Source: an uncultured Candidatus Saccharibacteria bacterium
GTDB lineage: Bacteria; Patescibacteriota; Doudnabacteria; UBA920
DNA: 58,516 nt
Direction of reading: 5' to 3'
Assembly: GCA_964484145.1 (NCBI GenBank)
Contig: CAZAED010000003.1
Coordinates: forward strand, 1-58,516
Made by a program: the position numbers and the translations under genes. The notes under the pieces are model-generated. The model was not told where the DNA came from. It ran no database searches and worked only from the letters and a program-made list of their open reading frames with translations. Positions 2,817 to 57,116 of this stretch are shown here, in pieces (the first letter of the stretch is position 1; each line of letters starts with the position of its first letter).

Positions 2817-3218
2817 ATGTTACAAGTAAGATCCTGGATTAAAATAGCAGACAATACCGGCGTTAAAATCGCTAATATTTTTGGCGGTAGCGGAAAAAAT
2901 CGCAGCCGTTTTGTTAGAGTTGGAGACGTTGTCTCAGCTTCCGCAAAACAGGTAGCGCCTAACGGCAACTACAAAAAGGGCGACAAAATTAAGGTAGCTA
3001 TAGTTAGAACCAGAAAAGAAATGCGCAGGAGTGACGGGTCTTATATTAGATTTGATGAAAATGCCGGAGTGCTTGTAAAGAAAGACGCGAAAGGTAATTT
3101 TGAAATAATCGGTACTCGTATATTCGGTCCTATTCCAAGAGAAATTCGTGATATGGCAAGTGGGTATTATGAAGATGCTTATAAGAAAATAGTATCATTA
3201 GCTCCAGAAGTTATATAG
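2817..3218 (+). CDS. rplN: 50S ribosomal protein L14
   Basis: ADNTG, VRTRKE-RR-DGSYIRFD-NA and GTRIFGPIPRE motifs ending in SLAPEVI. Slightly longer than the usual ~122 aa. Confidence 0.95.
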   Translation: MLQVRSWIKIADNTGVKIANIFGGSGKNRSRFVRVGDVVSASAKQVAPNGNYKKGDKIKVAIVRTRKEMRRSDGSYIRFDENAGVLVKKDAKGNFEIIGTRIFGPIPREIRDMASGYYEDAYKKIVSLAPEVI

Positions 3219-4583: not shown

Positions 4584-4976
4584 ATGTATACAGACCCAAT
4601 CTCAGACATGCTAACCAGAATCCGCAACGCGTTGTCCGCAAAAAAGGATGACCTTGTTTTGCCATATTCAAAGTTTAAAAAGAACTTGGCGGATTTGCTG
4701 ATGCAAGAGGGTTTTGTGGCCGGAGTAAACGAATTAGAAGGTGACCATAAAATGCTCCAAATAAATTTAAAATATTCAGGCGCGGGCGAACCGGTAATTG
4801 CAGGAATAAAGCGCGTAAGTAAACCGGGGCAGAGAATTTATTTGTCTAAAGACAGCTTGCCTAGAACTAACAGCGGCCTTGGTCTTACTGTAGTTTCTAC
4901 TTCTAAAGGTTTAATGTCAGACAGAAAAGCAAGAAAAGAAAAAGTTGGCGGAGAAGTAATATGCCAGGTTTGGTAA
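4584..4976 (+). CDS. rpsH: 30S ribosomal protein S8
   Basis: DPISDMLTRIRNA N-terminus and GGEVICQVW C-terminus. Confidence 0.96.
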   Translation: MYTDPISDMLTRIRNALSAKKDDLVLPYSKFKKNLADLLMQEGFVAGVNELEGDHKMLQINLKYSGAGEPVIAGIKRVSKPGQRIYLSKDSLPRTNSGLGLTVVSTSKGLMSDRKARKEKVGGEVICQVW

Positions 4977-42327: not shown

Positions 42328-42355
42328 TTGACATTCTGACTAAAGGTGGTAAACT
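42328..42355 (+). promoter_or_regulatory. sigma70-like promoter with extended -10
   Basis: TTGACA-16 nt (ending in TGG)-TAAACT. Confidence 0.5.
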
Positions 42356-42363
42356 AGCTATAA

Positions 42364-42604
42364 TAAAATATTATAAAGCACTAAACATTCGGCCTCGCAC
42401 GCCGAAACGCTGGCAGGGGAATATCTTGCACGGTCAGCCTACGCCGTAGAAATAGGTAAAAAGAGTTCGCTATTGTTGTCTGATCGCCTATTAATCGGCA
42501 CGCTACAACATAAGTGAAAATCGAGGTGGTACCGCGGAAGCGATAATATATCGTAAACCCGACCTTGAAAACAATTTTTTGTTTTTGGGGACGGGTTTTT
42601 GTTT
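42364..42604 (+). promoter_or_regulatory. T-box-like transcription-attenuation leader
   Basis: GAGGTGGTACCGCGG at 42523-42537 matches the T-box core GGGTGGNACCGCG. The flanks UCGAGG and CCUUGA can close an antiterminator around a UGGUACC bulge. CCUUGA is also part of the 5' strand of the terminator at 42555-42598. Confidence 0.5.
42555..42604 (+). terminator. intrinsic terminator of the leader
   Basis: AAACCCGACCTTGAAAACA...TGTTTTTGGGGACGGGTTT followed by TTGTTT. Confidence 0.7.
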
Positions 42605-42634
42605 GGAAAATCTATAATTAGGGAGAAGGGATAA

Positions 42635-42901
42635 ATGTGGCATCATCATAAGGAGCCGCTGAGGGTGGGACTCTTTGGGTATGATTGGAGAGATAGAATT
42701 GTTCAGGAATTGGCAAGAGTTAGGGGGCATCAGGTTATTTGGATTGCCCATATCCACCAGGCAGGGATTGTTTTGGACTTTTTATTGGACGACCCGCCGG
42801 ACATCCTAGTTGTCCACCCTTTAGCGCGTGTTAATTTCCCTCTGCTATTGTCCCCCCAGGCGGTAGTAGTAATCGGCCCGTCTCGGGCCAAAACAAGGTG
42901 A
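42635..42901 (+). CDS. orphan 88-aa protein in high-GC island 1
   Basis: Strong RBS GGGAGAAGGG at 42621-42630, four nt before the ATG. An intrinsic terminator lies directly downstream. Composition is R/P/W/H-rich, unlike the neighbouring genes. Confidence 0.55.
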   Translation: MWHHHKEPLRVGLFGYDWRDRIVQELARVRGHQVIWIAHIHQAGIVLDFLLDDPPDILVVHPLARVNFPLLLSPQAVVVIGPSRAKTR

Positions 42902-49990: not shown

Positions 49991-50050
49991 TAAACACTAA
50001 TATTTTAAAGGCTCAATCGAATGAGTCTTTAAAAATTCTCAAATTATGCC

Positions 50051-50079
50051 TTGAAAGAAGGCTTTTTTTAATGTAGAAT
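50051..50079 (+). promoter_or_regulatory. sigma70-like promoter in front of high-GC island 2
   Basis: TTGAAA-17 nt-TAGAAT. Confidence 0.6.
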
Positions 50080-50106
50080 TACAATCACATTCCAGGGAGG
50101 AAGATT

Positions 50107-50163
50107 ATGAAAATGGATCTAAATCCCGGAAAATTTAGTGTAAAGGACGTGCTATGGATGTAA
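50107..50163 (+). CDS. candidate 18-codon upstream ORF (MKMDLNPGKFSVKDVLWM)
   Basis: GGGAGGA at 50095-50101 sits five nt upstream of this ATG. Its stop overlaps the start of the 290-aa ORF (ATGGATGTAA). Confidence 0.35.
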   Translation: MKMDLNPGKFSVKDVLWM

Positions 50164-51026
50164 ACCAAAGACATTCTGTTGCCGTGTATGGCGCCGTACA
50201 GGCAACTTTCTCCGAGGAGACTGTGGAATTGCTGAGGAGTGGAGTGGCGTTTGTCGGAGCATCTCATGAAATCAGGTCGGGGTTTAATCTCCCGCCAACT
50301 GCCAGGGTCGTGGTGTATTGTAGTAAAGAGCTTGGACAACCCCGAGTCAACTTGCTCAAAAATGCCGCGGCCAAAATGCCCAATGTGCAATTGGTGGAAG
50401 CGTTCCACCAATCTGATATGGAGACGAAGCTTCAGGGGGTGTTGAGTCCCGTTTTAACACCGCCACTCAGACCTGATGGTGGATTGCAGGCAGATGCTCC
50501 TAGCGTACCAACAACATCACTCCCTTCACCAACACCGCCGCCGCCTTCTAACGGCAAACCGGAGCTCAAGCTCCCACCGCACGGACTGAGATGGAGTTTG
50601 ACTGAGTTCGTGTTCAATAATCTTGACAGGGACTTTCGTTCTGTTGGTGGCGAGGTCGAGCGTCTGTTTGGCCTTGCGAAACAGAACGGTTACCCTGAAG
50701 CTACTGAAAGCGGAGTCGGACAAGCTTTTCGCAAATTCCGCCAGGCAAATGGGTTGTCACAGCCCCGTCCCCGGCGCGGCAAGCTGGCTCAAGCACCGGT
50801 CTTGGTAGATTTGGGATACGTCGAAGTACCGGCGGTTGCTGAATTTTTACAGGACATTCAGAAGATGGGCCAAGGTCTCGCCGTTTTTGTGTCAGCGCTC
50901 GAAAAGGAGCGCGCGGGGAACAAGCGGACCATCGAGGAACTCGAGAGACGGATTAAGATACTTGAGGGAAAACTCGAGAATGCCAAGCAGGCCGCCGATC
51001 TGCTGGCAGCACTTCGGGGGCAATAG
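50154..51026 (+). CDS. orphan 290-aa protein in high-GC island 2 (alpha/beta N-domain, Pro-rich linker, C-terminal coiled coil)
   Basis: This is the only ORF spanning the island. A TTGAAA-17-TAGAAT promoter lies upstream and a strong terminator downstream. The nested alternative-frame ORFs are typical GC-rich shadows. Confidence 0.65.
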   Translation: MDVNQRHSVAVYGAVQATFSEETVELLRSGVAFVGASHEIRSGFNLPPTARVVVYCSKELGQPRVNLLKNAAAKMPNVQLVEAFHQSDMETKLQGVLSPVLTPPLRPDGGLQADAPSVPTTSLPSPTPPPPSNGKPELKLPPHGLRWSLTEFVFNNLDRDFRSVGGEVERLFGLAKQNGYPEATESGVGQAFRKFRQANGLSQPRPRRGKLAQAPVLVDLGYVEVPAVAEFLQDIQKMGQGLAVFVSALEKERAGNKRTIEELERRIKILEGKLENAKQAADLLAALRGQ

Positions 51027-51052
51027 AAGTTGCTTCAGATCCACAAACAACC

Positions 51053-51094
51053 GAAACGAGCGTGCTATATGGAGGAATAGCACGCCGTTTTTAT
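51053..51094 (+). terminator. intrinsic terminator after island-2 ORF
   Basis: AACG-A-GCGTGCTA...TAGCACGC-CGTTTTTATTT. Confidence 0.85.
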
Positions 51095-51211
51095 TTGGAA
51101 ATGTTAAAAAATTTCGTTAAAACAAATAAATATGTTGTAATTAATTGTTTGCTATTTAACCCCAGATATTCTTTTAGGTTTTTTTATTTTGTCTGTGGAT
51201 AGAATATTCAG

Positions 51212-51237
51212 ATATTGGATATTGGATATTGGATATT
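51212..51237. repeat. (ATATTGG)3.7 tandem repeat, reverse complement of the (ATATCCA)4 repeat inside rnhA
   Basis: Exact 7-nt periodicity. Confidence 0.9.
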
Positions 51238-51281: not shown

Positions 51282-51310
51282 TTGACCGGTGTTAAAAGGT
51301 GGGGTATAAT
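51282..51310 (+). promoter_or_regulatory. sigma70-like promoter of the dcw cluster
   Basis: TTGACC-17 nt-TATAAT. Confidence 0.65.
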
Positions 51311-51316
51311 TGTTTT

Positions 51317-51521
51317 AGATGTTTAAAAGTGGTATTTGGTGGGAAAAAGTGGGGAATATGGTGGAAAACCCCCAGTACCAGTCGCTACGACATAAATGTC
51401 GGCTCCGGTACGGGGCGCTACGCGAACTAAAACATCTTAAATTTGTAGTCATTTTTGGCTTCCAGCCCTGGCTTTTTAAGAAAACCGGGGCTGGTCTCTC
51501 CTTTAAAAAGACACGGTTAAT
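51317..51521 (+). promoter_or_regulatory. ~200-nt GC-rich structured leader of mraZ
   Basis: A G-tract region at 51338-51368, hairpin 51370-51415 (CCCC-A-GTACC.../GGTACGGGG with inner CGACA-TAAA-TGTCG), and a 10-bp hairpin 51462-51494 (CCAGCCCTGG / CCGGGGCTGG). Confidence 0.6.
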
Positions 51522-56609: not shown

Positions 56610-56640
56610 AGCGCGGCAACCAAGGTTGGTTGCCGCGCTC
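56610..56640. terminator. bidirectional hairpin terminator between convergent add and the island-3 ORF
   Basis: GAGCGCGGCAACCAA-G-GTTGGTTGCCGCGCTC is a nearly perfect 15-bp stem. T-rich runs follow it on both strands. Confidence 0.85.
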
Positions 56641-56649
56641 TTTGATGCG

Positions 56650-57075
56650 TTACTTGGGCCGGGGCATTTCCATATACCCCAGTTTTTTCCACTCTGGTGG
56701 GAGTGGGTTGCTTACGAAGCGGAATCCGCCATTGCTTTTTGTGCTGTGCTCGACCAGCCAAATCACGGCGGGGAGATCCCTATCTCTATTGGTCGGTTCG
56801 TCGTGACGTGGTTTTTCCCCTATGGGAAACTGGTTCCGATGGAACACATGCCACCGCTTAGTTCCCCACCCTTTTTGAGGCCTGAATTCTTTGCCGACTG
56901 GCACAGCCCAACAGCGTTGTTGGGATTCGTCCGTGCAAGCGATCAGGAGAATTTTGTCCCCACGATCTTCCGCCGAGGTTACAAAACCCTCGGTAAGCCC
57001 CGAAGTGTTTTTCGGTTGCTCGGTTTGGGCGAACAGTCCGCCCAGAAAAAAACAAAAAGACGCGATCAGTTTCAT
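56650..57075 (-). CDS. orphan secreted 141-aa protein in high-GC island 3
   Basis: GAGGAGG RBS at 57087-57081, five nt from the ATG. Signal-peptide-like N-terminus MKLIASFCFFLGGLFAQ. A perfect hairpin terminator follows the stop. Confidence 0.6.
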   Translation of the reverse strand: MKLIASFCFFLGGLFAQTEQPKNTSGLTEGFVTSAEDRGDKILLIACTDESQQRCWAVPVGKEFRPQKGWGTKRWHVFHRNQFPIGEKPRHDEPTNRDRDLPAVIWLVEHSTKSNGGFRFVSNPLPPEWKKLGYMEMPRPK

Positions 57076-57116
57076 AGCGTCCTCCTCGCAAGGAGTTTAA
57101 CAGTTATAAAGGTATT

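Follow-up and report, generated by a model that had tools for sequence, protein, structure and literature searches.

The DNA analysed here is a stretch of 58,516 nucleotides (positions 1 to 58,516 of contig CAZAED010000003.1, assembly GCA_964484145.1; hereafter the window) from the lineage Candidatus Doudnabacteria (Patescibacteria). Our subject is one of its genes, a GC-rich coding sequence (CDS) on the forward strand at 50154-51026 that lies between a SpoU-type methyltransferase gene and mraZ and encodes a protein of 290 amino acids. This CDS exists as deeply divergent versions whose distribution contradicts the flanking genes, and the divergence is confined to the CDS, between a conserved leader arm and a conserved terminator arm. 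The reading that we prefer, and consider rather probable, is that the locus is accessory and polymorphic, that recombination exchanges its alleles, and that its product is a modular cytoplasmic coiled-coil protein, probably a specificity determinant. The parts of this reading differ in weight: the evolutionary history and the anatomy of the locus are put forward with considerable assurance, and the function as a tentative guess.

Islands of high GC in AT-rich genomes are usually taken for DNA of recent foreign origin, and the present case shows that this can be wrong. Here the anomalous composition is a stable trait of a gene family, fixed at one locus while the alleles are swapped.

Divergent alleles between conserved arms

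The versions of the gene fall into four types. Type A comprises the window and the loci L001/L008 of relatives (loci of relatives carry L numbers throughout), type B comprises L007 and L010, type C is L020, and type D is L009, which is frameshifted. Between different types the proteins are 33-39% identical, and this grouping is at odds with the neighbouring genes. The window and L007 share 94% identity in SpoU and 33% in the target protein; L001 and L010 share 99% in MraZ and 36% in the target. L007 and L010, whose SpoU proteins are 84% identical, reach 68% in the target, and for the window and L001 the values are 94% for MraZ and 64% for the target. L001 and L008 represent one population (99.9% identical).

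The limits of the divergence are sharp. Between the window and L007, nucleotide similarity of 83-92% stops at window position 50147, 7 nt before the ATG, and resumes at 51046, 20 nt past the stop codon. The comparison of L001 with L010 gives the same picture: the flanks are 98.5-99.2% identical, the CDSs have no blastn similarity, and similarity resumes 17 nt past the stop. What differs is thus a replaceable "cassette" (50148-51045, forward strand), without detectable nucleotide similarity between types, that lies between conserved arms.

The gene is itself a mosaic. The window and L001 are 70% identical in a three-helix module and 78% in the coiled coil, against 25% in the N-terminal domain, a distance equal to that between the N-domains of different types. 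The junction falls in a Pro-rich linker, the N-domain is the hypervariable part, and the C-terminal module is exchanged independently of it. When the CDS was searched against the 58.5-kb window with blastn and tblastn, only the gene itself was found, with no template or silent copy. As far as the window is concerned, the target of a diversity-generating retroelement, or an antigenic-variation cassette, was rejected on this account and on the finding that the divergence spans the entire CDS.

As for composition, the CDS has a GC content of 0.540 and the interval 50085-51095 one of 0.522, so that the 55-60% given in the first-pass annotation is slightly high: the overall value is 52-54%, with 51-57% in 300-nt windows over the gene, although the 55% counted there by hand for 50461-50520 is exact (0.55). 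The background, put at ~35%, is really 36-38%, with 0.385 for the whole window and 0.36 for the flanks directly beside the gene. The difference in codon style and composition from the neighbours is borne out, the gene being an extreme outlier against the 62 other open reading frames (ORFs) of the window in GC (54% versus 38%, z = 4.8) and in GC at third codon positions (GC3; 0.536 versus 0.345, z = 4.4). Codon usage follows suit: the gene uses CTC at 0.30 (background 0.03), GTC at 0.26 (0.05), GAG at 0.59 (0.24) and TTA at 0.06 (0.41), and the encoded protein is enriched in Arg, Pro, Ala and Gly. Next to it, SpoU has a GC3 of 0.31, mraZ one of 0.38, and the leader a GC content of 0.31. The stretch from SpoU through the gene to its terminator, including both junctions, is matched at 99.2-100% by three independent Logan assemblies from different runs. 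The junctions that had been singled out for checking are therefore real, and the gene is not a chimera. A compositionally foreign, self-contained accessory gene with a history differing from that of its flanks, as proposed at the outset, is supported. Promoter, conserved leader with an upstream ORF (uORF), CDS and terminator together make the region a real monocistronic accessory unit, located between SpoU and mraZ in a small subclade of Candidatus Doudnabacteria.

A terminator-like hairpin of the upstream SpoU-type gene (GCCTTGAAAGAAGGC plus a T-run, 50048-50062, forward strand) overlaps the -35 hexamer of a sigma-70-like promoter, TTGAAA-17-TAGAAT (50051-50079, forward strand), which is predicted from a pattern scan (10/12 matches) and from conservation. 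The hairpin is kept in L007 and L010 and partly in L020; the stretch 50048-50107 is 98% identical to L007 and 93% to L010, and the putative promoter was found solely in genomes that carry the gene. There follows, over 50095-50163 on the forward strand, a strong Shine-Dalgarno (SD) sequence, GGGAGG at 50095-50100, the strongest of the region, with the uORF at 50107-50163 (MKMDLNPGKFSVKDVLWM). In the window this uORF, not described in the first-pass annotation, has 18 codons, and its stop overlaps the ATG of the main CDS (ATGGATGTAA), which has its own SD, AAAGGA, at 50142-50147. The leader SD and ATG are invariant across all allele types. The uORF is only 4 codons long in L007 (MKIG, 3170-3200) and L010 (MKIS, 4650-4680), and in L020 (about 4760-4775) the protein itself starts, in frame, at this conserved ATG. 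This layout suggests translational coupling or regulation by a leader peptide.

At the other end, an intrinsic-terminator-like hairpin (GCGTGCTATATGGAGGAATAGCACGC plus a T-run, 51060-51095, forward strand; hairpin proper 51060-51085) doubles as the 3' conserved arm. It is kept in types A and B (window, L001, L007 and L010) and not in L020. Sites like the AT-rich promoter and the strong terminator proposed from the sequence were thus both found by scan and are 98% kept in a related species: leader and terminator of the window and L007 share that identity, above the identity of the adjoining coding flanks. The conserved leader (SpoU terminator, promoter, SD and uORF start) and the terminator occur only in carrier genomes; those without the gene have no remnants of either, and scars of a loss are not visible. 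In the window, the octamer CGTGCTAT occurs twice. One copy (50147-50154) lies on the 5' boundary of the cassette and overlaps with the start codon, the other (51061-51068) forms the left arm of the hairpin, and the SD-start region 50142-50155 is thus 86% complementary to the right arm (51077-51090). This duplication is absent from L007 and L010 and may be due to chance.

How widespread is the gene? A word-indexed search of 5.8 billion protein clusters returned one non-self relative, and an exhaustive HMMER profile search of 1.84 billion representative proteins returned five: a 90-aa fragment, proteins of 298 and 257 aa, and the two halves of one frameshifted gene. The description as an orphan is accordingly nearly, though not strictly, true. 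No homologue outside the lineage was found among the 1.84 billion proteins or in scans of genome, viral and metagenome contigs. Further members were sought by peptide-pattern contig scans, leader-DNA scans and a second profile search, with none found beyond L010, and exact look-ups of the window MraZ and SpoU added no family members. L010 itself came from a survey in which GTDB species representatives were scanned with MraZ as anchor. This gave 44 loci with MraZ at least 75% identical, mostly from Candidatus Doudnabacteria, and carriers were counted over the 39 species representatives whose sequence reaches 1.5 kb or more upstream of mraZ. Two of them (L010 and L020) carry the gene, and 37/39 lack it. 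A common, vertically inherited gene of the lineage is not what this survey found, the gene being rare and its alleles incongruent with the flanks.

The gene occupies the SpoU-mraZ gap in at least four lineages. The order HisKA-RR-PCC-YdjM-SpoU-[gene]-MraZ-RsmH-...-PBP is seen in L005/L020 and in L007, and the gene also lies upstream of mraZ in L001, L008 and L010. Thus the nearest relatives (L001/L008, L007 and L010) and the more distant L020 carry a member at the same site, and it is only from more distant Doudnabacteria that the gene is missing at the locus. In most surveyed loci SpoU lies 300-400 bp upstream of mraZ. Inspection of the region 0.3-2 kb upstream of mraZ revealed other contents elsewhere: an N6/N4 DNA methylase with a 243-aa partner of no assigned family (L024), an IS1595 transposase with an uncharacterised 212-aa gene (L019 and L049), an M50 peptidase (L045), a glutaredoxin (L022 and L026) and uncharacterised ORFs (L012 and L042); in yet other species the gap is empty. 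Since other species hold other genes at the same spot, the SpoU-mraZ gap is a hotspot of the flexible genome. There is no tRNA in the window, no recombinase among the genes within 10 kb in L005, and flanking repeats are short and at chance level. A fifth copy, L009 (1552-2527), lies outside the division-and-cell-wall (dcw) context and adjoins a SpaA_4/LCAT gene; it is frameshifted twice, in the Pro-rich linker and close to the C-terminus. In a literature search on Doudnabacteria, nothing on this locus appeared among the titles and abstracts listed.

Protein architecture and a candidate role

The gene evolves as a coding sequence, and a fast one. Over the C-terminal 167 codons, the window and its closest relative, L001, differ at 25, 25 and 57 sites by codon position, with a ratio of nonsynonymous to synonymous rates (dN/dS) of 0.24; the pair L007 and L010 gives 0.25. 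The ratio for mraZ is 0.016-0.018, and the target gene thus evolves 10-15 times faster.

A full-length AlphaFold2 model, built from a 7-sequence alignment, has a predicted confidence score (pLDDT) of 70.6, and a separate model of the C-terminal module, with 75.1, agrees with it. The model contains a four-stranded alpha/beta N-domain (aa 8-101, nt 50175-50456, forward strand as are all the parts; pLDDT 75-91), a Pro-rich disordered linker (aa 102-136, 50457-50561), a three-helix bundle (aa 149-198, 50598-50747), a basic disordered arm with the motif PRPRRGK (aa 203-225, 50760-50828) and one helix of 64 residues that probably forms a coiled coil (aa 226-289, 50829-51020). The multi-part architecture described from the sequence agrees with this model, and the succession of N-domain, Pro-rich linker, helical module and long helix is shared by all relatives. 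Residues S8, G13, I40, Q86, L93 and L97 of the N-domain are invariant. A likeness of this domain to the small protein encoded at 42635-42901, which had also been proposed, did not hold up: BLASTP gives E = 13, and the family profile matches nothing else in the window. Inspection of the sequence revealed no apparent signal peptide or membrane segment, for which reason the protein is placed in the cytoplasm.

The expectation that no family would be recognisable by motif proved right. The window protein belongs to no family in Rfam, Pfam, PHROG, PADLOC or NCBIfam, and the matches of the members in Pfam, PHROGs, PADLOC, NCBIfam and PDB sequences (Striatin, BST2, SMC, LmuB and PbeC) were set aside as coiled-coil noise. 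Foldseek searches of the AlphaFold2 models against PDB and BFVD gave best E values of 0.024, 0.034 and 0.66, which assign no fold, and the N-domain is only vaguely like generic flavodoxin- or receiver-like folds. Protein families without known relatives are common in genomes of the candidate phyla radiation (CPR).

Two known protein types were tried and rejected. Matches to the helix-turn-helix (HTH) regulator RsfA/YlbO fall on the coiled coil only, at profile positions 80-136, and not on the HTH. For a receiver domain, comparison by hhalign with the receiver domains and response regulators of this same genome gives a probability of 0.5%, there is no Pfam Response_reg match, and neither a conserved acidic pocket nor an invariant Asp is present. 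The protein does resemble response regulators in the order of its parts, an alpha/beta N-domain of ~100 aa followed by a flexible linker and a small helical C-terminal domain, and in weak, non-significant Foldseek matches to the receivers of AdeR, ETR1 and CsgD (E 0.25-0.38); it differs from them in ending in a long C-terminal coiled coil.

From these elements a mechanism can be proposed. Alleles would be swapped by homologous recombination through the conserved arms and the linker, and either selection, balancing or diversifying, or repeated replacement would keep them diverse. The protein would act in the cytoplasm as a dimer or oligomer held together by the long C-terminal helix; its variable alpha/beta domain would serve specificity or recognition and be tethered to the conserved helical module; the three-helix bundle and the PRPRRGK arm may, judging from the model, bind nucleic acid. 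The role that would suit such a protein best is that of a specificity determinant in genetic conflict or partner recognition (immunity, defence or incompatibility), and a housekeeping role in cell division is less likely than this one.

Polymorphic specificity loci with idiomorph-like alleles between conserved flanks are familiar from the pherotype loci of other bacteria: comCD of Streptococcus pneumoniae, comQXP of Bacillus subtilis and agr of Staphylococcus aureus. The present locus has in common with them deeply divergent allele classes at one site, sharp boundaries against conserved flanks, and a distribution incongruent with phylogeny, such that different alleles occur in near-identical backgrounds. 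The differences are equally plain. Here there is one cytoplasmic protein instead of a secreted peptide and its receptor; the uORF peptide is not conserved (18 aa in the window, 4 aa in L007 and L010); and all alleles are GC-rich compared with the genome and belong to a family without known relatives. A pherotype (quorum-sensing) locus proper was rejected on the grounds that a single gene, with no signal peptide, lies between SpoU and mraZ and that the uORF peptide is not conserved. By analogy, then, the population-genetic pattern resembles that of specificity, immunity or pherotype loci, and the molecular parts of such systems are absent. Swapping of alleles is a phenomenon of a known kind, though the setting is new; what is unusual in addition is an anomalous composition that is maintained within the CDS only.

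High GC and competing explanations

Every version of the gene is GC-rich. GC3 in the gene, compared with its flanking genes, is 0.54 versus 0.31-0.38 in the window, 0.51 versus 0.34-0.39 in L010, 0.52 versus 0.29-0.39 in L007 and 0.62 versus 0.36-0.44 in L020; in L001 it is 0.55, with a total GC of 0.53 for the gene versus 0.41 for mraZ. In all versions the richness in GC extends to each of the three codon positions, and the proteins are rich in Arg, Pro, Ala and Gly. The high GC is therefore an old trait of the family and not the scar of a fresh transfer into this genome.

What, then, keeps it high? Four causes were weighed, namely a donor signature, GC-biased gene conversion, RNA structure and overlapping genes, and none settles the matter. 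The types are saturated at synonymous sites, and a residual donor signature could hold for all of them only if each had been imported on its own from a GC-rich reservoir; no such reservoir was found among the 1.84 billion proteins or in the contig scans. For recombining bacterial genes, GC-biased gene conversion has been given as the cause of a higher GC (Lassalle et al. 2015, PMC4450053). Like those genes, the present one, with its intragenic and allelic recombination, has a GC3 above that of its genome; unlike them, its excess is very large (+0.13 to +0.22 GC3), reaches the amino-acid composition and is limited to the CDS, the recombining arms and the neighbours being AT-rich. As for RNA structure, the mRNA of the window version is more stable than its shuffles (z = -5.3; -4.6 with dinucleotides and -5.1 with synonymous codons preserved; +0.3 for the rsmH control), and this excess is missing in four other alleles (z -0.3 to -1.7). 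Since the excess is specific to the window, RNA structure does not explain the composition of the family, and it was rejected as its cause. Local mRNA structure peculiar to the window version is possible: the signal is localised to 50274-50453 and 50574-50753 (local z -3.5 and -3.3), and perfect 10-bp hairpins lie at 50390-50412 and 50663-50685. An overlapping or antisense gene was rejected as well, no alternative frame being consistently open across the alleles.

Several observations weigh against a locus of exchanged, selected alleles and against the roles suggested for its product. Synonymous divergence (pS) within a type is below that of the flanks (0.44-0.53 versus 0.63-0.71), which suggests either exchange between species after their split or constraint on synonymous sites; these lower values fit later transfer or codon constraint better than a strict trans-species polymorphism. 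Only five lineages are available, and dimorphism within a species comes from a single population pair (L001/L008 versus L010), from different samples, with ~1.4 kb of flank at 98.5-99.2% identity and 93% further downstream. The frameshifted L009 copy may be a pseudogene or an indel-prone assembly artefact. With regard to defence, the window protein has no match in PADLOC-DB, and the matches of other members (PbeC and LmuB, E 0.001-0.01) concern at most two of seven members and resemble coiled-coil noise. With regard to DNA binding, an HTH fold of the RsfA/YlbO or NarL type was rejected, the best Foldseek E value of the C-terminal module being 0.66 and the HTH matches having E > 4. Lastly, GC-biased gene conversion is a weak cause, given that the arms and the neighbouring genes are not GC-enriched and that the GC3 excess of +0.19 is large.

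A bolder form of the same idea, which we think improbable, is a long-lived, trans-species balanced polymorphism. The gene would then be a self/non-self, immunity or host-partner determinant and would found a new family in ultra-small episymbionts, with recombining modules (a variable N-domain and a conserved C-terminal module) and a high GC content actively maintained against the AT bias by a recombination-linked process or by selection on DNA or mRNA.

The first-pass annotation had favoured recent horizontal gene transfer (HGT) from a donor of high GC, conceivably a host if the bacterium is an episymbiont; the GC content would then be a donor signature not yet ameliorated. This origin gains from the strongly atypical composition and codon usage, from the lack of the gene in most Doudnabacteria, from the two further GC-rich ORFs of the window (42635-42901 and 56650-57075, the latter without homologues and absent from relatives), and from a simple amelioration estimate that is compatible with each allele type having started at higher GC. 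We nevertheless regard it as quite unlikely. In at least four lineages relatives occupy this very locus, all of them GC-rich, with only 33-39% protein identity between types and with a common AT-rich promoter, leader and terminator. No homologue is found outside the lineage in the 1.84 billion representatives or in three contig collections, so that no donor can be named, and the relatives with readable context lie in dcw-type loci of Doudnabacteria. Integrase or other mobility genes, tRNA and flanking direct repeats are missing too. Compositionally atypical ORFan genes and genomic islets that stem from horizontal transfer are the subject of the Lawrence-Ochman amelioration framework. The gene shares with such islets its atypical GC and codons, its own promoter and terminator, its patchy distribution and its hotspot location; it departs from them in having no mobility genes, tRNA or att repeats and no identifiable donor lineage, and in that its locus is filled in several species by divergent alleles that are always high in GC.

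Lower again in probability is a cargo cassette of a site-specific system, integron-like or driven by another recombinase, placed between a fixed promoter-leader and a recombination site in the 3' hairpin. That the breakpoints coincide with the ends of the CDS, that a conserved imperfect hairpin stands directly 3' of the variable part, that CGTGCTAT is present in the window at both the 5' boundary and the left arm of this hairpin, and that the gap is an insertion hotspot, with an IS1595 transposase in other species, would all suit such a system. Yet in L005/L020 the genes within 10 kb include no integrase or recombinase, and none lies near the gene in the window; the hairpin with its T-run looks like a normal intrinsic terminator, L007 and L010 do not share the boundary motif, and the 3' end differs in L020. 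The intragenic mosaicism, moreover, points to homologous rather than site-specific exchange.

Could the gene simply be lineage-specific, vertically inherited and extremely fast-evolving, with no exchange of alleles? The conserved synteny and a dN/dS 10-15 times that of mraZ speak for it, but we find it very improbable: the CDSs of L001 and L010 are dissimilar (36% protein identity) between flanks that are 98.5-99.2% identical, while L007 and L010, more distant in their flanks (SpoU 84%), still share 68%. Point mutation in place cannot produce this pattern.

That the GC-rich kilobase is a structured non-coding RNA or a DNA-level element, with the ORF incidental, is scarcely credible. High-GC islands in AT-rich genomes are often RNAs, and the window version does fold far better than its shuffles by all three z scores given above. 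Against this, the other alleles have no folding excess; four lineages keep the ORF open, and in a fifth it can be recovered once two frameshifts are bridged; and its substitutions are biased to third positions, with a dN/dS of about 0.25. Rfam has no match for the gene at the gathering score or even at E <= 1 and gave nothing relevant for the whole window (gathering score) or its three GC islands (E <= 1), and ARAGORN finds no tRNA or transfer-messenger RNA in the window. An assembly chimera or a contaminant in an AT-rich contig, to which the abrupt change of composition might point, has a negligible probability, given the three independent assemblies that span both junctions at 99.2-100% and the same arrangement in other species.

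Exchange of alleles at a polymorphic accessory locus thus remains the account that we prefer, and its interest depends on whether the polymorphism is selected. If it is, the locus would be one of the first candidates for a role in specificity or conflict to be described from Doudnabacteria or any other CPR bacteria, organisms for which cultivation-free evidence on partner recognition or immunity is scarce. It would also provide a compact test case (~0.9 kb with conserved arms) for GC-rich genes in AT-biased genomes, and a test of whether biased gene conversion acts so locally. If the product is only a fast-evolving hypothetical protein, the outcome is a documented accessory hotspot between SpoU and mraZ and a caution for HGT calls based on composition.

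Other features of the window

Two other GC-rich spots of the window differ in kind from the target gene and from each other. The first (42328-42901) consists of a leader resembling the T-box type followed by a small orphan ORF. A promoter-like site at 42328-42364 is succeeded by a GC-richer leader of ~220 nt, which holds the exact T-box core motif GGTGGTACCGCG at 42525-42536 and ends in a terminator hairpin (42563-42590) with a T-run; the SD GGGAGAAGGG comes next. The Rfam T-box model scores 16.5 bits against a gathering score of 93 (E = 0.35). The ORF (42635-42901) encodes 88 aa, has a GC content of 0.51 and has no Pfam match.

The other spot (56611-57095, minus strand) holds a 141-aa ORF at 56650-57075 with a GC content of 0.53, a strong SD (GAGGAGG), an N-terminus like a signal peptide (MKLIASFCFFLGGLFA/QTEQ) and a terminator hairpin at 56611-56640. 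The ORF has no homologue in the 5.8 billion protein clusters. The spot is absent from relatives, in which the adenosine deaminase and EamA genes are 28 bp apart (L010) or separated by a 92-bp gap (L008).

Further small features lie between the target gene and mraZ. A 7-nt tandem repeat, ATATTGG, in about 3.5 copies (51211-51237), stands between the terminator and the mraZ promoter; it is common to the window and L007 and degenerate in L010 and L001. The 5' untranslated region of mraZ contains a GC-richer insertion of ~58 nt (51366-51425, CCCCAGTACC...GGTACGGGG), which is absent from L010 and L001 and partial in L007. The mraZ promoter, TTGACC-17-TATAAT (11/12 matches), lies within 51282-51360 and is surrounded by four or five direct (A)AGTGG(G/T) boxes with a spacing of ~10-11 nt. 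The columns of these boxes are invariant in all aligned Doudnabacteria loci, including those without the target gene, and the boxes presumably form the operator of MraZ.

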